From the IMG/VR virus record IMGVR_UViG_3300035698_035307, positions 1 through 23,520 of that record: a DNA stretch of 23,520 bases. One strand, written 5' to 3'. Below, piece after piece: positions 7,844-21,108 of the stretch. The notes beneath the pieces were generated by a model. The model did no database searches, had not been told where the DNA came from, and saw only the letters and a list, made by a program, of their open reading frames with translations. Position numbers and translations under genes: made by a program. Position 1 is the stretch's first letter. Each line of letters begins with the position of its first letter. The DNA is from a virus. Its lineage: Duplodnaviria; Heunggongvirae; Uroviricota; Caudoviricetes.

Positions 7844-8800
7844 TTATGTGCCTATAATAAAACGATTATTAGTATTTTGAATTGTCTTCATGTCTAAATC
7901 ACTAGCAAAGTTACCAAGTCTGTGCATGGTATCTTCTGACATTTCTTTATCGTAAAAATCGTTATAAATACTGTGATACAACTTAACCGAAGCATCATAC
8001 GGTAATCCTGGTTGTGAATTGATTTCGATAATATACATTGCACCATCTTCATCTTTCATTAAATCTAATGCATAAATATCCACTTTACTGAAATTCTCAC
8101 GAACCTCTTTTAATATTTCTTTAAATTCATCAGGTATGTAATCTAATACAACTTTAGTATAGCCAAATTTCATAGCTTCGTCAGTTCCACCAGTACCTTC
8201 TTTTGCTTTCTTATTAAGTGCTTCTCTTTTCATGAACAACAATGGGTGTTCTTTAAAGAGTATTAATCTAAATTCTTCATCTATTTTAATCTTCTCAGAG
8301 AATACTTCAAACTCGTCTTTGTTTTCTCTTAATTCTTCTTTTAACTTAAAACTTTGAATACCTATTCCAGAATGGTTATTATCTGGTTTAGCAATGATTG
8401 GAAAACTAAGATTCTCTAATGCATCTTCTTTAGAAAATACTGTTTTAGGAACAAATTTACTTTTCTCCATTGTCATATGAAAATTCCGTTTACTAGAGAC
8501 AGATTTAACATCGTCTGGCTTATTGTAAACATTCTCTAATGGTATTAACTTATTTTCGATTAAGTACCTGCTAATGTCATTATTGTAATTAATAACAGGG
8601 TATTTTTGATTTATCTGATATGATAATTTCTTTTCAGTAAGTGGTAGCATAAAATTCTCTGTAGCATACTCCTTATAAGAGATATCAGTCCCTTTATTAG
8701 TATTGTCATATACTAAAAGTGCTTTAAATAATTCACCAAACTCTTCTTTTATAAATTGAGTGTAGCCTTTTACTTTTACGAAATTACTTTTTATACCCAT
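7844..8800 (-). CDS. ATP-grasp ligase (RimK/glutathione synthetase-like)
   Basis: VPKTVF, FPIIAKPDNNHSGIGI, EFRLILF, YALDLM, IIEINSQPG; N-terminal VKGYTQFIKEE leader. Confidence 0.88.
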   Translation of the reverse strand: MGIKSNFVKVKGYTQFIKEEFGELFKALLVYDNTNKGTDISYKEYATENFMLPLTEKKLSYQINQKYPVINYNNDISRYLIENKLIPLENVYNKPDDVKSVSSKRNFHMTMEKSKFVPKTVFSKEDALENLSFPIIAKPDNNHSGIGIQSFKLKEELRENKDEFEVFSEKIKIDEEFRLILFKEHPLLFMKREALNKKAKEGTGGTDEAMKFGYTKVVLDYIPDEFKEILKEVRENFSKVDIYALDLMKDEDGAMYIIEINSQPGLPYDASVKLYHSIYNDFYDKEMSEDTMHRLGNFASDLDMKTIQNTNNRFIIGT

Positions 8801-9197: not shown

Positions 9198-10085
9198 TTA
9201 TTTTTTAGTTTCAAGAAACACTCCTAATGCACCTTTATAATCTTCCTGAGTTCCACCTTCTTTAATCAGGTTTTCCATCGTCTTGAAAAATGTTTTCGTA
9301 GTTTTTGGAAATATAATTTCTTTGTACTCGCCATATTCGAATAATGGTTCTTTCAACTCAAAATGAGGTGAAGATACATTTTCTTCATTTTCAATCTTAT
9401 CTGCAGCATCGAAATGTCTTTCATAGAAATGAATATTGTCAGCTGAATGAAAATACGTACCGAGTTTTAATTCTGGATAGTATGGGAGCAACCATAATCT
9501 CATTTGTTGTAATACAATTGAAAAGAATGGGGCATCATAACTTAAACCAAAGAACATATCATTTGAACGTATTGTCATCTTCATGTTCAGAGTGTCTTCT
9601 CTTATAAAGAAATTCAGATACATCGTGCATACAAAATCTTTGTTACCAACATATTGAAATTTAGGTTGATTTAAGAACGCTATCGCTTGACGAGTATTCT
9701 TATCACTTCTTAGTGAGTTCAAGCACCAATAAAGTTGGTCACCGAATAATAAGTCACCATAATTCGAATTAATTTCACCACCTTCATCTGTTAGGTTTCC
9801 CCAGAACTTAGAAAAATTTGAAATGTAATCTACTGTACGTTCTTTTTTCAAATACCAGGCAAGTTCACCTGCTAAGTATTTCCAATTAAATGGACGTTCT
9901 TTAAAATCAAGTAATACCTTCGTAGGATTAAGTGGCATCGTATGCATATACAATTCCTTCACCTTTTGCCCCCTCGGCGCACTCTCATAACCATCATTCT
10001 TTATCTTACTTATAAGACTCTGGAACTCATGATTAATATCTTGCTTATGTTCTTTCTCGCTTAAATAGTTTGGTATTTTTGTCAT
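9198..10085 (-). CDS. Thymidylate synthase-fold enzyme, dCMP hydroxymethylase-like (T4 gp42 family)
   Basis: GEINSNYG, DKNTRQA, DFVCT (catalytic Cys), RSNDMFFGLSYD (Asp at the cytosine-specificity position), HFYERHF. Confidence 0.85.
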   Translation of the reverse strand: MTKIPNYLSEKEHKQDINHEFQSLISKIKNDGYESAPRGQKVKELYMHTMPLNPTKVLLDFKERPFNWKYLAGELAWYLKKERTVDYISNFSKFWGNLTDEGGEINSNYGDLLFGDQLYWCLNSLRSDKNTRQAIAFLNQPKFQYVGNKDFVCTMYLNFFIREDTLNMKMTIRSNDMFFGLSYDAPFFSIVLQQMRLWLLPYYPELKLGTYFHSADNIHFYERHFDAADKIENEENVSSPHFELKEPLFEYGEYKEIIFPKTTKTFFKTMENLIKEGGTQEDYKGALGVFLETKK

Positions 10086-10090
10086 TGCTC

Positions 10091-10951
10091 TTAATTATTT
10101 TTCAAAATTAGTTCCTTAAGTTCGGATTCAAACTTATAGAGTTTTAACAATGTCTCGTTCCTTTGTTTCATTAATTCTTTGAAGTTTTCAGTAGGAAGTG
10201 TACTCTTCAAATATAATGGAAATGTATTAACACATAGATAGTTCAGGTAATCAGTAACTAAGTCCTTCCAGATGATTCCTTTAATATTACTATGTTCTTT
10301 GTAAGTTTCGAAGAACTTCTCAATTAATGCAAAACTAAAATCTAATTCTTCAATGTCAAGCATATCTGATACGAATGACATGATTTCTATACTGATAAAA
10401 TCAAATGCTGCAAAATCAAAATCAATCAAAGTATACTTATCACCGTCCCATAAAATATTATGCTTACGAAAATCTCGATGTAATGCAATTTTAAGTTGTT
10501 TCTCATTGATACCTTTGATATCTTTTTGAATCTTCTTTCTGATACTTAAATCTCGTTTCAATGCGACTTTATTATTTACAGCTTCTTCCCAAGCCATTAA
10601 ATCATCGTACATTAATTCTTTATGAGGTAAGTCAATTGTATCACCTTCTTTCCAACAATGATTATGAATCTTAGCCATGTTCTCAGCTATAATTGAAACA
10701 GAAGTTACACCTAAGTTCCATTCACATTCTTTAACAACCTCATATCGACATTCAATTATCTCAGGGTCTGTATTAGCAGGATGGCCATAAATTCCTTTAT
10801 TAATTTCGAATCCATTTAGATTGTCAATGTTGTAAAATAATCTGGTTTGAAATATACCAACTCTGTAATCATATTTGCTCTTAGGCATATACTTAATAAA
10901 GACATCATCTCGTATTTCAGTACTGCTAGTGTTACCGCCGCTTTTATTCAT
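10091..10951 (-). CDS. APH/choline-kinase-like phosphotransferase
   Basis: MAKIH, LHRDFRKHNILW (HxDxxxxN) and LIDFD motifs. Confidence 0.85.
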   Translation of the reverse strand: MNKSGGNTSSTEIRDDVFIKYMPKSKYDYRVGIFQTRLFYNIDNLNGFEINKGIYGHPANTDPEIIECRYEVVKECEWNLGVTSVSIIAENMAKIHNHCWKEGDTIDLPHKELMYDDLMAWEEAVNNKVALKRDLSIRKKIQKDIKGINEKQLKIALHRDFRKHNILWDGDKYTLIDFDFAAFDFISIEIMSFVSDMLDIEELDFSFALIEKFFETYKEHSNIKGIIWKDLVTDYLNYLCVNTFPLYLKSTLPTENFKELMKQRNETLLKLYKFESELKELILKNN

Positions 10952-11915
10952 CTTTGTTGTAAATTTTTAGAAAGTCGTGTTCAATTGCATTGTCATTTGC
11001 TTTTGCCATTGTGGCCGTATAAAGAATTAAAGCCCACTTATAAAAGTATTCTGTTTTAAAATACGTTCTGTCAGGTTTATATAAATCTTTGTAAGTAGTT
11101 ATCGTACCACCATCGATATCCTCATGTTTACCAGCTTTCATAAATTCATCGACATAATGATATAAGATTCCATTTTCTTGAACCCATTCCTTATGTGTTA
11201 ATTCAAATGGCATTGGATGATACGTATGATTAGGGTCGAAGTCTTGTGACCAGGTAGGTTTACCACTTTTGTCACAATAATAATGCATACTAACTGTCTT
11301 GTATAGAAAGTGTCCCATTGTTAATTCAGGGTAAAATTCTGTAAGCCAACCTGTCATCATTTCTTGAAGTGTTGTAAATAAAATCACATCGTTTGCCCAT
11401 CCCATTGAAAGTGCAGTTCCTCTTGTTTCAAGAGTCATATGTAATTTATTATCTCGTATGATAAAGTGACAGTATATTAAACAAGGGTAGTGAACTTTGG
11501 GTCTTCTACTACCAAAAGATATTACTGCCTTTCTACTGTTCTTATCATCTCTGAGTACGTTTCTTATTTTGAGTAGTGACCATCTACTATTTCCTTGGCG
11601 ATTTTCATTGCCAAAGAACATGATATTGTCTTCAAACCCCATTGTTTTTTTGACCATTTCCCTTGAATGCATAACCCTCGGTTGGTTTTCATTAAAGATG
11701 TCAAAAAGTTCTTGATAAATGAAAGGCATATTTAAGCCTTTGATAGGTATGATTTTATCACGAGGATTTTTAATTAGTACAGAAGCATTCATAACTTCTT
11801 TAGTCCATTCTTTCCTGGCTTCTACTAATTCACCCTGGTCATCAATTAATTGTGCGAAGTACTCATATGCATCTCTTGCATTTTGTACTTCTGCATACTT
11901 CATATTATAATCCAT
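10944..11915 (-). CDS. Divergent thymidylate synthase-fold enzyme
   Basis: TKEVMNASVLIKNP, DKNSRKAVI, YPCL, FIIRDNKLHMT, TRGTALSMGWAND, GHFLYKTVSMHYY. Confidence 0.85.
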   Translation of the reverse strand: MDYNMKYAEVQNARDAYEYFAQLIDDQGELVEARKEWTKEVMNASVLIKNPRDKIIPIKGLNMPFIYQELFDIFNENQPRVMHSREMVKKTMGFEDNIMFFGNENRQGNSRWSLLKIRNVLRDDKNSRKAVISFGSRRPKVHYPCLIYCHFIIRDNKLHMTLETRGTALSMGWANDVILFTTLQEMMTGWLTEFYPELTMGHFLYKTVSMHYYCDKSGKPTWSQDFDPNHTYHPMPFELTHKEWVQENGILYHYVDEFMKAGKHEDIDGGTITTYKDLYKPDRTYFKTEYFYKWALILYTATMAKANDNAIEHDFLKIYNKDE

Positions 11916-12908: not shown

Positions 12909-13244
12909 TTATCTGTCATCTCCCGAACCTCTTTCAGTTCCTCTGCTAACTCTACCTGCTAATTTTTCATTGTTTAAGTTTGCAATATCTTCAAGCGTAT
13001 AACCTAATTTACCGGCAAGTACTGAAAGATACCAAAGAGTATCGCCAAGTTCATTGCCAATTGCTTTCTTTGTAGTAGGTGTCAATTCGCCTTTGTCATC
13101 TCTGAAAAGTTTCTTGACCTTTCCTGCTACCTCTCCTGCCTCCTCAGACAGTCCAATTGATAAATATGTAAATGGATGGATATGTTCCCCTCCTGTAAAG
13201 AATGCATTCTCTAATGCACTCTCCTGATAATCATTCATCGTCAT
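12909..13244 (-). CDS. mazG: MazG-like nucleoside triphosphate pyrophosphohydrolase
   Basis: GLSEEAGEVAGKVKK, NELGDTLWYL, N.EKL..R and GSGDDR tail. Confidence 0.92.
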   Translation of the reverse strand: MTMNDYQESALENAFFTGGEHIHPFTYLSIGLSEEAGEVAGKVKKLFRDDKGELTPTTKKAIGNELGDTLWYLSVLAGKLGYTLEDIANLNNEKLAGRVSRGTERGSGDDR

Positions 13245-15942: not shown

Positions 15943-15973
15943 AAAAAGGGTAAACATCTTATAGTGCTTACCC
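15943..15973 (-). terminator. Intrinsic terminator closing the 19471-15984 operon
   Basis: Minus strand GGGTAAGCA-loop-TGTTTACCC-TTTTT. Confidence 0.75.
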
Positions 15974-15983
15974 CTAATCATTT

Positions 15984-16172
15984 TTACTCCGTATGAGCTT
16001 TTTTGACAATCATTACATCTTCTGGTAATGGATTGTCTTTAAATTTTGCTAGAAAAGCTTTCAAAGTTTTTTTAGCTTTACTAGGCGATAGCTTACCTAC
16101 AGGAACAATGAAAGTTCTTCTAACTTCTCCTTGTCCTGTTTTACACCAATAGTCTTTCTCTAATCTTGTCAT
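15984..16172 (-). CDS. 62-aa protein resembling the T4 gp20-type portal clip region
   Basis: RRTFIVPVGKLSPSKAKKTL....KFK resembles the gp20-family RRxFYIDVGxxPxxKAxxxL pattern; ATGA coupling to the upstream gene. Confidence 0.65.
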   Translation of the reverse strand: MTRLEKDYWCKTGQGEVRRTFIVPVGKLSPSKAKKTLKAFLAKFKDNPLPEDVMIVKKAHTE

Positions 16173-17020
16173 ACTAATTCTCTTTTTAACGGTAATGTCA
16201 TGCAGGCAAACCCTCCTGCCATTTTTCTAATTTCACTCATTTTACAAGTATGAATTTTCATACCTTGATGACATTCTAACATTGCTTTAACTTGTGGGCA
16301 ATCATCAGCCATTATAATTTCCCTTGGACCAATCACTAAAATATTAGTGGCATAGTTCTTACTGACCTCGTCAAACTCAGACAGTGTAATCACATTCTTA
16401 TATCCTAATGTTTCTTGACTCAGTTCTGACCTTATGAGTAACGTATCAGCATCCAGAATCATATGAGCACCTAATATATGTTGAGGTATTCCTTCAGGTA
16501 AAGCTTCGACTGTTTTAAAATTAATATGAGGATATAATTGTTGTAATGTTTCTGCTACCTTTGGAGAAGTTCTATTACCTACAGATAAAATTACTTCATC
16601 TGGTTTAGTTCTTAACATATCAGCTCCTTCAAATGTAATATCTTCACTGAACTCAATTAATTTCCCAGCGTATTGTTCTTTTCTTAAATACTTAATAAGA
16701 TTAAGTTCTTCACCTTTTCTTACATCATATCTTAAATTCCCAAGTATAATTGAATCATCTAAAACTGCAGCTACATCTCTCATATAGATTGCATTAGCGT
16801 GATATAAATAATCAGGAGTATGCATATCAGTATGTACTTCAATACCTAATTTGTTTAAAAGGTCCCATAATGCTGAAACTTCTTCTAATACTACGTCATA
16901 GTTTGGTTGAAATTCATACATCGCCTCATCAGCTGTCATCATTTCTAGTTCACCTCTTCGAGGTATATGTAAGAAAACTGATTGTAGTTTTCCATATTCT
17001 GAGTTATATCCTACTTCCAT
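16169..17020 (-). CDS. Amidinotransferase/arginine deiminase/DDAH (pentein) family enzyme
   Basis: NSEYGKLQSV, NAIYMRD, RKGE, FEGAD, RTS, QHIL, GGFACMTLPL (catalytic Cys). Confidence 0.9.
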   Translation of the reverse strand: MEVGYNSEYGKLQSVFLHIPRRGELEMMTADEAMYEFQPNYDVVLEEVSALWDLLNKLGIEVHTDMHTPDYLYHANAIYMRDVAAVLDDSIILGNLRYDVRKGEELNLIKYLRKEQYAGKLIEFSEDITFEGADMLRTKPDEVILSVGNRTSPKVAETLQQLYPHINFKTVEALPEGIPQHILGAHMILDADTLLIRSELSQETLGYKNVITLSEFDEVSKNYATNILVIGPREIIMADDCPQVKAMLECHQGMKIHTCKMSEIRKMAGGFACMTLPLKRELV

Positions 17021-17481
17021 TATGAGTATTTTATTAATGTTATTAATTCCTCAAATTCTTCAACTTGTGGTATATTATATTTACTGCAAACTATGTCAAT
17101 GTTTCCTTTTCTCCAGAAACCTTCTGGGCAATAAATAACTAGCTTACCTGATTTAGCGTATAAGCCAAACTCTAACAGTGAGATAGGTGCTATACTATCT
17201 TTTGTCAAAACCATTATAATTTTATCAGCTAATTCTAAATGTTCTAATTCCCAATTAACTTGTTCATTAAATTTTGGATTATCAATTGATTGTTCCCATG
17301 TATCATCCCATTCATCTCTACGTGGATTGTAAAGTATAACAGGAAAGTCTTTTACAGCTTCTGTAATCTTTAATTGCCAATCTTCGGCTTTACCCATATC
17401 AATTGACCCTGCAAGAAAGATACTTTTATATCCTTCTACTTTTGCAGCATATCCGGGTGGTTTTATTACAATTGTTTTCAT
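17020..17481 (-). CDS. Nucleoside 2-deoxyribosyltransferase-like protein
   Basis: IFLAGSI, DWQ, NPRR, QVNWE..L..AD, APISLLEFGL. Confidence 0.9.
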   Translation of the reverse strand: MKTIVIKPPGYAAKVEGYKSIFLAGSIDMGKAEDWQLKITEAVKDFPVILYNPRRDEWDDTWEQSIDNPKFNEQVNWELEHLELADKIIMVLTKDSIAPISLLEFGLYAKSGKLVIYCPEGFWRKGNIDIVCSKYNIPQVEEFEELITLIKYS

Positions 17482-17482
17482 T

Positions 17483-17728
17483 TTAAAATCTTGCTGCGCC
17501 TTGTACAGGCAGTTCTTCAGGTGTTCCTTTACTATTTCTAACTATTTTGAAGCATTTCTTGAATGTAACTTTGTCCATATTTACAAGATTGCTAGGGTGT
17601 ATAGTATGAATGAGAATGTCATTAGTTTCTTTAGCTATACGAAACATTACATAATTATTTAGCTTTAATCCAGGCAGTCGATATCTGCTGGGGAGTATCT
17701 TTTCATATGTAGCATTATAGTATCTCAT
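17483..17728 (-). CDS. Hypothetical protein
   Basis: 1-bp gaps to both neighbours within the operon. Confidence 0.7.
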   Translation of the reverse strand: MRYYNATYEKILPSRYRLPGLKLNNYVMFRIAKETNDILIHTIHPSNLVNMDKVTFKKCFKIVRNSKGTPEELPVQGAARF

Positions 17729-17729
17729 A

Positions 17730-18956
17730 CTAAATCCATTTATCTGTGTTCATTGAATATCCTAATCTATACATCATATCTTGAACATGTGGTTCTTTTG
17801 CTAACCAATTCATCTCATGTTCTCTTTTCTTCCACCTGTATAAACCTGGCTCATCTGTTGCCATCGTTACTGGCATAACTCCAATTTCTACGTGAGGTAT
17901 TCCAATATAGTCACATATATCATCTGCTATTTCTTGAGGACTTATTAAGAAGTCTTCGAACTTAACTCTCATTGTATGAACCTTACTTTCAAGAATTGAA
18001 TTATGTGCAGTGTACCATTGATTTAAACAAACTTGTTCAAGTGTAGAATTTGTATATTGTTTCCAATTAGCAGGTAAGTCAAATTTCCACCATTTCTTTC
18101 CAAAAGCTTTAACATCACTATAACCTTTAATATTGAGTTCTAAATCTTGTGATTCCATATTATGTGCAAAGAAACCATTATCAGATAACCAACCGTCCAT
18201 TAAACCGTTTGTTGTTTGTGCAAATCCTCTACTTAAGTGGATATACTTTATCTCTGCATTTGGGAATAGGTTCTCGAATAATCCAATTCTATAACAGTCT
18301 TGAGGTGTCTTAAATAAAAGCGGATGTGTAGCTGCGTCTTCTTCAGTAAAACTTCTTTTCTTAGAAGGTATTACGAAAGGTGGTTCCTCAATCTTAATCT
18401 GTTCAGTAAATAATTGTTTGTCTTTTGCAAATAAATCATAATAACCTCTCTTATCTGGCATGAAACTATTAATGAATCGCTTAGTAGATTCTTCATAGTT
18501 ATCACTGTTACCGTAAGCTTCGTGAACTCTCTGTTCTATTAATTCATGAAGTTCTGGCTTCATTTCAGGATATTGATACAGCATTCTTTTCTGCCAGTCA
18601 ATTGTAGTTCTTCTTACATCAATGAATGGAATATTAATACCCATATCTGAAAACATAATATCAAGAAGCTTTTGTTTATCATTAACTTCAGTAAATCCGT
18701 CAGACTCTGTCCAAGGAAATGCATTCTTTGTTAAGATGTAATAAGGTTCTTCTTCACCAGAAAGATAAGCAATATCATCACTCTTAGACAATATTGATTT
18801 CATTAATGTTGAACCAGAACGAGAAGCTGTAAGGATTACTACAATCTTTTTTACTTTCTCATTTAGATTCCCAGTTGGCTTTATAAAACCTTCTCCAAAT
18901 AATTTATCATTGACATTGTCAATAGCGTTCTCTACTCTTTCTGTGTATTTGTTCAT
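17730..18956 (-). CDS. PAPS-dependent sulfotransferase-family protein
   Basis: ILTASRSGSTLM (5'-PSB loop), FKTP, FPNAEIKYIHLSR (3'-PB), VKFEDFL.SP, YRLGY. Confidence 0.85.
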   Translation of the reverse strand: MNKYTERVENAIDNVNDKLFGEGFIKPTGNLNEKVKKIVVILTASRSGSTLMKSILSKSDDIAYLSGEEEPYYILTKNAFPWTESDGFTEVNDKQKLLDIMFSDMGINIPFIDVRRTTIDWQKRMLYQYPEMKPELHELIEQRVHEAYGNSDNYEESTKRFINSFMPDKRGYYDLFAKDKQLFTEQIKIEEPPFVIPSKKRSFTEEDAATHPLLFKTPQDCYRIGLFENLFPNAEIKYIHLSRGFAQTTNGLMDGWLSDNGFFAHNMESQDLELNIKGYSDVKAFGKKWWKFDLPANWKQYTNSTLEQVCLNQWYTAHNSILESKVHTMRVKFEDFLISPQEIADDICDYIGIPHVEIGVMPVTMATDEPGLYRWKKREHEMNWLAKEPHVQDMMYRLGYSMNTDKWI

Positions 18957-19471
18957 GCTTTCATTCTTTCGTTTACAAAATCGATTACCTGTTGGATATG
19001 TTCGTCTTCGATATGAAAATTGTCTGGATTAATTACAACAGGACATGTTGCAAAACTAGATAATACCTTCATATACTTATCCACATGTGTTTTAAAGTCT
19101 TTACCTTCTTTACTACTCCGCTTGGCTGCTAGTGCTGGCCAATTTTCTTCAGTAGTTGCTATAAATACTGCGCATTTATGAATGTGACTTTTAGATACTC
19201 GTAAAATTTCTTTACGATAACCTTCGTCTTCAGAATATGCAGCATCTGTTAACCCTCTATCCCAGAGAATTACTCTTTTATAATCATTTATCTGGTCTAA
19301 TCTTTCGATATTATTATGCATCCAGAAATTATAATCTTGCCATCTCGATTGCATTCCTATATTAATAGCACCTGCCCCCTTGAATCTTATCCATTCAGGT
19401 TTTTGTTCTAATAATTTATCAATGAGATATGTTTTGCCAACTGTTGACAAACCTTCTAAAAAAACTATCAT
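18953..19471 (-). CDS. P-loop nucleoside monophosphate kinase (TMPK/dNK-like)
   Basis: IVFLEGLSTVGKT Walker A and ILWDRG DR motif. Confidence 0.82.
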   Translation of the reverse strand: MIVFLEGLSTVGKTYLIDKLLEQKPEWIRFKGAGAINIGMQSRWQDYNFWMHNNIERLDQINDYKRVILWDRGLTDAAYSEDEGYRKEILRVSKSHIHKCAVFIATTEENWPALAAKRSSKEGKDFKTHVDKYMKVLSSFATCPVVINPDNFHIEDEHIQQVIDFVNERMKA

Positions 19472-19487
19472 ATGTTATTTGTTTTGT

Positions 19488-19516
19488 ATTATATGGGCTA
19501 TAGCCCTGATGGTTTC
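19488..19516 (-). promoter_or_regulatory. GAAAC-N18-TATAAT promoter with palindrome GGGCTATAGCCC (19495-19506) in the spacer
   Basis: Between a terminator and the kinase ATG. Confidence 0.6.
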
Positions 19517-19525
19517 ATTAATCAT

Positions 19526-19560
19526 AAAAAAAGCCACCTATTCAGTTAAGTGGCTTTTTT
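19526..19560 (-). terminator. Intrinsic terminator, potentially bidirectional
   Basis: A7-GCCAC-loop-GTGGC-T6 downstream of ORF 19572-20315. Confidence 0.85.
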
Positions 19561-19571
19561 ATGATGACTAC

Positions 19572-20589: not shown

Positions 20590-21108
20590 TTACAGAAATT
20601 CAGCCAATTCACTGGATTTTATCCTTAAATCAAAATCAGTAAAGTTGTCAAAGTCTTTTCTGTCAGCTCCCATACGTCTTTCCAGACTGTCACCTGGCAT
20701 AGTTCTTTGTGCAAGTCTTTCTCTTCTTATTGCTTCTGGAATGTCCATAAAGATAATAAAAGAATTTTTTCTATCTTCTGGTAATAATTTGCTAATTCCA
20801 GATGGCGTCATAATAAAGGTATCACACATCGACATTTGTTCTTTAGCTGTTCCATAATACCAGCCGTTAAATTCTACGTATTCATACCAAAAATCTTCTT
20901 TGATTCTCTTTTGAAACTCTTTAACACTAAGAAAATAATAATCAATTCCTTCAACTTCACCTTCCCTTGCAGGGCGAGTAGTATAAGATACAGCATGGCT
21001 AAATCCTTTCTTTACAAATGCGTCTTTTAAATAGTCTTTTCCACCGGCTGCATGGCCGCAAAATATCATACGTGCTCTTGGAAATAAATAAGTTTGCTTT
21101 CCTGTCAT
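20590..21108 (-). CDS. gmk: Guanylate kinase
   Basis: GHAAGGKD P-loop; VSYTTRPAREGEVEGIDYYF; EYVEFNGWYYGT. Confidence 0.92.
   Translation of the reverse strand: MTGKQTYLFPRARMIFCGHAAGGKDYLKDAFVKKGFSHAVSYTTRPAREGEVEGIDYYFLSVKEFQKRIKEDFWYEYVEFNGWYYGTAKEQMSMCDTFIMTPSGISKLLPEDRKNSFIIFMDIPEAIRRERLAQRTMPGDSLERRMGADRKDFDNFTDFDLRIKSSELAEFL

Follow-up and report, generated by a model that had tools for sequence, protein, structure and literature searches.

The thymidine-hypermodification clusters of phages M6, ViI, PaMx11, SP10, and PhiW-14 encode a dUMP hydroxymethylase, a 5-hydroxymethyldeoxyuridine (5-hmdU) DNA kinase, an AADT or aGPT-Pplase, and tailoring enzymes (PMC5889632, PMC8989533). The nucleophile used by AADT-family enzymes is a free amino acid or an amine/diamine (PMC8989533; PMC13458397), and ParB-dependent T-dioxygenases are consistently linked with P-loop kinases and AADTs as thymidine-hypermodification machinery (PMC13229309). 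For the 5-hydroxymethylcytosine DNA of T4, the comparable enzymes are the hydroxymethylase gp42 and the dNMP kinase gp1. Among known hypermodifications of phage DNA, the added groups are sugars, amino acids, polyamines, or carbamoyl/carboxymethyl groups; none in the literature we searched involves sulfate or guanidino chemistry. Here we describe a phage gene cassette encoding a P-loop kinase, a sulfotransferase (ST), and a DDAH/ADI-like guanidino enzyme, found in the 151.5-kb viral record IMGVR_UViG_3300035698_035307 of IMG/VR (G000; CheckV estimate 54% complete). The stretch analysed, referred to below as the window, is the first 23.5 kb (23,520 nucleotides) of this record, and positions are those of the window unless another record or locus is named.

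The cassette lies in a block of six genes that we read as one transcription unit, in functional terms a conserved three-enzyme cassette accompanied by three lineage-specific passengers. Based on its sequence features and gene neighborhoods, the best reading is that the cassette, together with a nearby hydroxymethylase, APH-family kinase, and divergent TS-fold enzyme, builds an undescribed hypermodified 5-substituted cytosine for the phage DNA, through sulfation and arginine-type chemistry. We give slightly better than even chances to the general view that this is a cassette for hypermodifying 5-hydroxymethyl-pyrimidine DNA, and far lower confidence to any specific sequence of steps or acceptor atom. 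Like the thymidine clusters, the system combines a generator of a hydroxymethyl-pyrimidine, a kinase, and enzymes predicted to attach or tailor an amino-acid or amine side group; unlike them, the window's genome fragment lacks an AADT and a 5-hmdU DNA kinase, and its modified base is probably cytosine. It likewise shares with T4 a gp42-like hydroxymethylase with the cytosine-type Asp and phage nucleoside monophosphate (NMP) kinase-type enzymes, but here a kinase resembling thymidylate kinase (TMPK) and deoxynucleoside kinase (dNK) is coupled to an ST, and APH, TS-fold, and guanidino enzymes are added. Text searches of PMC5889632, PMC8989533, and PMC13229309 found no mention of a sulfotransferase or DDAH-like enzyme, and full-text literature searches returned no paper tying a sulfotransferase or a DDAH/ADI-type enzyme to phage DNA hypermodification.

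Related loci were fetched by alignment of ST homologues (18 viral, 80 genome, and 6 metagenome loci), their open reading frames (ORFs) were called and compared with the window proteins, and the neighbors were clustered. ORF calling used a simple longest-ORF heuristic that at times selects the wrong strand in high-GC genomes, and bacterial counts are lower bounds. Three of the six genes form the conserved core: the kinase, an approximately 410-aa ST of the type dependent on 3'-phosphoadenosine 5'-phosphosulfate (PAPS), and the guanidino enzyme. The stop codon of the kinase overlaps the start of the ST (ATGA), and the kinase immediately precedes the ST in 9 viral loci. At 13 viral and 3 metagenomic loci, the guanidino gene comes right after the ST, the exceptions being mostly contig ends; all phage architectures found share this adjacency, and in most cases the stop and start codons overlap. 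In contrast, the three other genes of the block, which encode an 81-aa ORF, a nucleoside 2-deoxyribosyltransferase-like (NDT-like) protein, and a 62-aa ORF, lack homologues at all 17 related viral loci. The initial annotation had treated the six genes as one functional set; its coupling of kinase and ST is borne out, and the neighborhood comparison confirms the kinase-ST order (9 loci) and the ST-guanidino order (16 loci), but the other three genes drop out of the set, since conservation of the six-gene order fails for each of them.

The cassette occurs in three settings: with a dCMP hydroxymethylase, APH kinase, and TS-fold enzyme; with an AADT and 5-hmdU DNA kinase; and in a ParB-Tet/JBP operon. 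The first is most compact in the large-phage contigs L003-L006 (about 50% ST identity), in which a guanylate kinase, a homologue of an acidic 247-aa window protein, and the P-loop kinase are followed by the ST, the DDAH-like enzyme, the divergent TS-fold enzyme, the APH kinase, and the hydroxymethylase, so that the cassette directly abuts the trio. Variants of this synteny occur across L007-L011, L102, and L103: the hydroxymethylase overlaps the start of the kinase in L008, L010, and L011, and the order is ST, DDAH-like enzyme, TS-fold enzyme in L009, L102, and L103. Linkage of cassette and trio recurs in L003-L006, L009-L011, L102, and L103. A TS-fold gene is found in 13 of the 17 ST-bearing viral records and a Tet/JBP gene in 2 of the 17; the remaining two are fragments. 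All 17 adjoin a hydroxymethylase, APH kinase, AADT, 5-hmdU DNA kinase, or Tet/JBP gene, in keeping with the earlier proposal that the ST serves nucleotide or DNA-base rather than glycan chemistry. Neither DNA-level nor tblastn searches of 50,697 GenBank phage records returned a match to the block, the ST, or the DDAH-like protein, and no cultured carrier is known.

Distant phage STs, 32-40% identical and with the same signature residues, adjoin thymidine-hypermodification genes. The family ADDT (PF18724) is represented adjacent to or a few genes from the ST in L012-L017, L019, and L020, and several of the L012-L020 records also have HMUDK_hel (PF18723), either in the vicinity or at another place in the record. 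In a complete 79-kb phage (L013:7732-12844), the operon encodes a ParB_N protein, a Tet/JBP dioxygenase, a P-loop nucleotide kinase (PF18751), the ST, the DDAH-like enzyme, and an AADT. As AADTs take free amino acids or diamines, the cassette could make a custom nucleophile or tailor the nucleophile after attachment. The L013 operon is compact and would be a good minimal system for reconstitution; a Dam methylase gene lies a few hundred bases downstream of it. In a 188-kb phage record, an adenylosuccinate-synthetase-like gene of the PurA/PurZ type (L012:5237-6310) occurs about 2.6 kb upstream of the ADDT-ST-DDAH-like trio, and this phage may combine purine and pyrimidine modification.

The ST matches Sulfotransfer_3 at 45.4 bits against a cut-off of 27 (1.5e-11) and belongs to a large and very well conserved family of 511 homologues of about 410 aa each. 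The PSB-loop R46-S-G48-S49, E68, and R243 do not vary among 23 family members, nor in AADT-linked, bacterial, candidate phyla radiation (CPR), and archaeal members. The R-S-G-S loop, which aligns with the PRSGS loop of CurM, is followed about 22 residues later by the invariant Glu; by analogy with TPST and CurM, we take the loop, Glu68, and Arg243 to be the PAPS-binding and catalytic elements, and the active site is accordingly predicted to be intact and of the PAPS type. The AlphaFold2 model (pLDDT 94) includes a helical insertion of about 100 residues. All top 10 Foldseek matches to this model are sulfotransferases with a probability of 1.0, with low TM-scores owing to the insertion; the best folds are the activating sulfotransferases CurM and OLS, followed by Stf1/Stf9 and TPST. 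CurM and OLS (PDB 4gbm, 4gox) are also the top sequence-profile matches and have the PRSGS-type PAPS loop in common with the ST, but the TM-score is only about 0.37 over the query, with 12-13% identity. Moreover, they are polyketide synthase domains acting on a beta-hydroxyacyl group on acyl carrier protein (ACP), while the phage ST is stand-alone, and no polyketide synthase, ACP, or thioesterase gene was found in the loci examined; we therefore rejected the ST as a polyketide synthase domain of the CurM/OLS type.

These nearest solved relatives sulfate a hydroxyl purely to create a leaving group, and this raises an alternative in which the phage ST sulfates the 5-CH2OH of 5-hydroxymethyldeoxycytidine (or 5-hmdU), as nucleotide or in DNA, and the sulfate is then displaced, replacing the role of phosphate in the 5-hmdU DNA kinase/AADT route. 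Such a role would fit the complete phage of L013 and the 73%-complete record G001, which have an AADT and an ST and no HMUDK_hel match, as well as the lineage of the window, in which both AADT and 5-hmdU DNA kinase are lacking. On the other hand, a 5-hmdU DNA kinase and the ST occur together in several records (L014-L019), L013 has a P-loop kinase directly before its ST, and cellular homologues with identical signature residues have no source of hydroxymethyl-pyrimidine nearby. An activating ST would also leave the near-universal pairing with a guanidino enzyme unexplained, and we regard it as unlikely.

Two relatives, G008 and G010, encode a genuine APS (adenosine 5'-phosphosulfate) kinase (about 1e-73), and in both records the module ST is the sole Sulfotransfer_3 gene; this offers independent, though indirect, support for a need for PAPS in these phages. 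In the records of L004 and L006, the APS kinase regions (L117:1429-2950 and L118:1420-2787) continue with a small CTP_transf_like nucleotidyltransferase. The G008 APS kinase ORF is 317 aa long and its C-terminal part has weak HAD-like matches. It adjoins a CMP-sugar-type cytidylyltransferase, which could be taken to mean that the ST sulfates a virion or host-surface glycan, lipid, or protein and that its proximity to nucleotide genes is functionally meaningless. Most characterized bacterial Sulfotransfer_3-type enzymes do act on glycolipids, glycans, or peptides. However, the ST is tightly linked to a guanidino enzyme in 16 loci, mostly by stop/start overlap, it is also linked to a kinase or AADT across three unrelated phage architectures, and no glycosyltransferase is among the recurrent neighbor families identified at ST loci. 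Unrelated neighbors are thus a very improbable explanation.

The enzyme encoded downstream of the ST matches the Pfam ADI/DDAH family at 60 bits (2e-16). Its family profile ranks Pseudomonas aeruginosa DDAH (PaDDAH) first among PDB entries (1e-27), then arginine deiminase (2e-21), human DDAH-1, and arginine dihydrolase; the amidinotransferases AGAT (6e-10) and StrB1 (1.5e-3) score lower. It was first assigned to the amidinotransferase fold; these profile scores do not bear out a closer relation to AGAT and StrB1 than to the hydrolases, though as far as sequence alone can tell it may still act as a transferase. The NCBIfam scores all fall far short of equivalog level (ADI, 58.8 bits vs 414; DDAH, 40.5 vs 340). 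The Cys273-His181-Glu131 triad is invariant and aligns with C249, H162, and E114 of PaDDAH (PDB 1h70/3rhy); the pentein fold and this triad are common to DDAH, arginine deiminase, and the phage enzyme. PaDDAH also shares with it the two carboxylate-binding arginines (R101 and R150, equivalent to R85 and R132) and the guanidino-binding Asp, whereas the position of PaDDAH Asp60 is an invariant Asn76 in the phage enzyme, which further differs from DDAH and ADI in its pairing with an ST in phages and its sub-equivalog scores. We take the Arg pair to hold the substrate α-carboxylate and Asp60 to bind the α-amino group. The retained Arg pair and guanidino Asp, with Asn in place of the α-amino Asp, suggest a substrate resembling arginine in which the carboxylate is free and the α-nitrogen is altered or substituted.

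Sequence matches of the kinase are weak (AAA_33; phrog_761, thymidylate kinase, 2e-5), and no Pfam or NCBIfam family scores above cut-off for it, so it is a divergent member at best. Nonetheless, 23 homologues all retain its Walker A (GLSxxGKT) and DRY-like WDRG motifs, and the top Foldseek matches of its AlphaFold2 model (pLDDT 91) are dNK, TMPK, and YorR, with TM-scores of 0.60-0.67. Based on the Walker A and DR-type motifs and the modeled NMP-kinase fold, we assign it to the thymidylate kinase/deoxynucleoside kinase family, and it probably acts on a modified dNMP. Three other identities were considered and rejected. As an APS kinase supplying PAPS, it would have a poor fold match (TM-score 0.44-0.47), G000 has no PF01583 match, and genuine CysC proteins are encoded elsewhere in relatives, which argues against the adjacent TMPK-like kinase being the enzyme that makes PAPS. 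As a 5-hmdU DNA kinase (HMUDK), it aligns with the L019 kinase at an hhalign probability of 0.2%, and PF18723 is absent from G000. Nor is it kin to the P-loop kinase of L013; with this kinase, as with the 5-hmdU DNA kinase, hhalign aligns the Walker A loop only.

In the window, the hydroxymethylase is most like T4 gp42 and has Asp at the position that we take to specify cytosine in gp42, so the modified base is predicted to be cytosine rather than thymine. In the proposed pathway, this hydroxymethylase would turn dCMP into 5-hydroxymethyl-dCMP, and the hydroxymethyl group would then be activated by the APH kinase and TS-fold enzyme here, or by the 5-hmdU DNA kinase and AADT in other phages. 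An arginine-type nucleophile would replace the activated group, the DDAH-like enzyme would convert the guanidino group into a ureido group or an amine, and that side group would also receive sulfate from PAPS through the ST, whether as a free precursor or once attached. The TMPK-like kinase would raise the modified dNMP to the diphosphate. As a more speculative extension, which we consider possible but doubtful, phages with the ST-guanidino pair would have an arginine-derived side chain at C5 of cytosine or thymine that carries sulfate as an ester or sulfamate, forming the first sulfated natural DNA base; in the lineage of the window, a TS-fold enzyme repurposed as a substitution catalyst may assemble this base while it is still a nucleotide.

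The ST also has a cellular counterpart. In many Oxalobacteraceae, other Burkholderiales, CPR bacteria, and one Woesearchaeota metagenome-assembled genome, a HemK/MTQ2-like methyltransferase, an ST (about 42-46% identical, with the same invariant residues), and an arginase-family enzyme are encoded in this order (L021-L100, L104, L105; e.g., L098:9183-11997). The ST is immediately followed by a guanidino-acting enzyme in both phages and cells, with a pentein fold in the former and a ureohydrolase fold in the latter. Together with the acidity of the phage enzymes, this favors a small arginine-type acceptor over the hydroxymethyl base itself. There is a precedent for the pairing in clethramycin/mediomycin biosynthesis, in which a PAPS-dependent ST and an arginase-family amidinohydrolase tailor one guanidino-bearing polyene in independent late steps whose order can be swapped (PMC5704753). 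The ST-arginase triads of cells and the ST-DDAH-like pairs of phages show the same logic of pairing. The likeness is drawn for this logic and implies no homology of the enzymes; the polyene is the product of a Streptomyces polyketide pathway, and the two genes are non-adjacent.

Several observations weigh against a role in DNA hypermodification. No DNA-modification or hydroxymethyl-pyrimidine genes are found near the cellular methyltransferase-ST-arginase triads, and because these STs carry the same signature residues, the ST may act on an ordinary small metabolite as its acceptor, with a product that does not necessarily reach DNA. Capsid-like, MazG, and other genes separate the cassette from the hydroxymethylase trio by 4 kb in the window, and the 151-kb record (54% complete) has no AADT, 5-hmdU DNA kinase, APS kinase, or ATP sulfurylase. 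Arginine has no hydroxyl for O-sulfation, and the sulfated atom is a guess. The isoelectric points of the ST (5.4) and the DDAH-like enzyme (5.0) are atypical for DNA-binding enzymes; those of AADTs themselves range from 4.6 to 9.5, so net charge is not a decisive clue to DNA binding. Finally, the phage is uncultured, and the proposed chemistry is predicted here from sequence alone.

Some of these observations would be accounted for if the product of the cassette, whether or not the TS-fold and APH enzymes take part, were a sulfated guanidino or nucleoside metabolite that stays free and does not become part of DNA. It could arise by mildiomycin/blasticidin-like logic or be a modified polyamine or arginine derivative, and it would act on the host or condense DNA. 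The triads lacking DNA-modification neighbors, the acidic ST and DDAH-like enzyme, and the precedent of an ST with an amidinohydrolase in polyene biosynthesis (PMC5704753) are consistent with this alternative, as are the APH-family kinase, a type of enzyme that typically phosphorylates small molecules, and the NDT-like gene inside the unit in the lineage of the window. However, the phage STs are repeatedly wedged among DNA-acting enzymes (AADT, 5-hmdU DNA kinase, and Tet/JBP with ParB), and no relative with an ST identity of 51% or less has the NDT-like gene. A free small-molecule product therefore appears fairly unlikely to us, and hypermodification of 5-hydroxymethyl-pyrimidine DNA is the reading that we retain.

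Every gene in the window is on the minus strand, and the G+C content is about 33%. The six tightly packed ORFs of the unit (19471-15984) are present exactly where they were first annotated (Table 1), and of their junctions, counted from 5' to 3', the first and last are ATGA overlaps, the second and third 1-nt gaps, and the fourth a 1-nt overlap. The domain matches, among them Sulfotransfer_3, Nuc_deoxyri_tr2, and ADI/DDAH, also agree with the initial assignments.

Table 1. Positions of the six-gene unit, its borders, and neighboring genes in the window
Feature	Position	Strand	Evidence or remark
dCMP hydroxymethylase-like enzyme	9198-10085	minus	Pfam; T4 gp42, 5e-18
APH-family kinase	10091-10951	minus	Pfam
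Divergent TS-fold enzyme	10944-11915	minus	Pfam
Intrinsic-terminator-like hairpin and T-run, downstream border	15946-15975	minus	Terminator scan; fold -16.3 kcal/mol, z = -4.0
Basic ORF, 62 aa	15984-16172	minus	Sub-threshold Portal_T4 match
DDAH/ADI-like guanidino enzyme, 283 aa	16169-17020	minus	Pfam ADI
NDT-like protein, 153 aa	17020-17481	minus	PF15891
Basic ORF, 81 aa, pI 9.9	17483-17728	minus	No Pfam match
Sulfotransferase, 408 aa	17730-18956	minus	Sulfotransfer_3
P-loop kinase, 172 aa	18953-19471	minus	TMPK/dNK type
Putative promoter	19488-19517	minus	TATAAT at 19493-19488 perfect; -35 candidates match 2/6 bases
Terminator-like hairpin and T-run, upstream border	19518-19566	minus	Fold -20.8 kcal/mol, z = -7.95
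Acidic protein, 247 aa	19572-20315	minus	Syntenic homologues in L003-L006
Guanylate-kinase-like protein	20590-21108	minus	phrog_1815, TIGR03263; syntenic in L003-L006

With a hairpin at either end, the unit is bracketed on both sides. The downstream terminator had been predicted and was recovered by a terminator scan, while the upstream hairpin closes the preceding gene, which encodes the acidic protein. The sigma-70 promoter proposed between this hairpin and the kinase gene holds in part: the TATAAT element is present, but no convincing -35 element accompanies it and a consensus scan did not recover the site. Start codons in the window have no obvious Shine-Dalgarno sequences. The closest GenBank relatives of the phage's portal protein (G000 48135-49385) are from metagenomic huge phages, namely LR756500 (62% identity) and the LR7565xx records (460-735 kb), and from Prevotella Lak phages, and the phage may therefore not follow sigma-70-type promoter rules. 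This portal kinship, the 33% G+C, and the lack of obvious Shine-Dalgarno sequences suggest a huge phage, perhaps with a Bacteroidota host, rather than a classical T4-like cyanophage. A recurring GATATATA motif occurs 20-45 nt upstream of several starts (genes starting at 823, 4863, 14752, and 15861) and may be a phage-specific, possibly late, promoter; the six-gene unit carries CATATAATA in its place.

Of the three passengers, only the NDT-like protein has a clear family assignment, scoring 118.5 bits against a cut-off of 30 for PF15891 (Nuc_deoxyri_tr2; 2e-34), with further matches to phrog_30579 (4e-49) and PDB 4mcj (1e-30). Its sequence places it in PF15891 as a nucleoside 2-deoxyribosyltransferase-like protein. 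The gene is inserted between the ST and the guanidino enzyme, and its two nearest homologues are 82% and 80% identical. Because the longest contigs of these two (11,267 and 4,516) agree in length with those of the nearest ST and kinase homologues, the insertion is probably kept only in these two closest relatives; the gene context of the closest STs (58-80% identity) is likewise judged from such agreement in length. The family has more than 2,000 matches, among them proteins of unrelated jumbo phages (e.g., CcrColossus, Xanthomonas X1, and RsoM2USA). The initial annotation had likened the unit to the MilA/MilB logic of mildiomycin, and with the NDT-like gene being a widespread accessory of unrelated large phages, this argument loses its MilB leg and is weakened. 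An atlas search with the 81-aa ORF yields small hypothetical viral proteins only. The 62-aa ORF had been called a mini-portal, a label that rests on a sub-threshold Portal_T4 match (16.8 bits vs a cut-off of 22.9, over 33 residues) and does not agree with its length. It aligns with residues 267-303 of the phage's own portal at 29% identity over 38 aa, the same stretch as that of the sub-threshold match, and could be a portal-derived fragment or a chance likeness.

Other genes near the trio include a MazG-like pyrophosphatase (12909-13244) and an ATP-grasp ligase (7844-8800), the latter without a homologue in related loci. In L002, which is on the same contig as L003, two homing-endonuclease-like genes occur inside the module, one with NUMOD3 and a TnsA-like N-terminal domain and the other with GIY-YIG and NUMOD3 (L002:6583-7443 and L002:10127-10861). 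The module region seems to be an insertion hot spot, fitting the extra genes in the window's block.

The occurrence of the ST and DDAH-like pair in three hydroxymethyl-pyrimidine architectures predicts a new class of DNA base and new enzyme activities. If the prediction is correct, such a base would, like other hypermodifications, probably change how readily restriction enzymes and CRISPR act on the DNA, and the enzymes could serve in DNA labelling. The survey also flags a widespread cellular methyltransferase-ST-arginase triad and, because the conserved ST residues are identical in the two systems, solving that of either cells or phages should illuminate the other.

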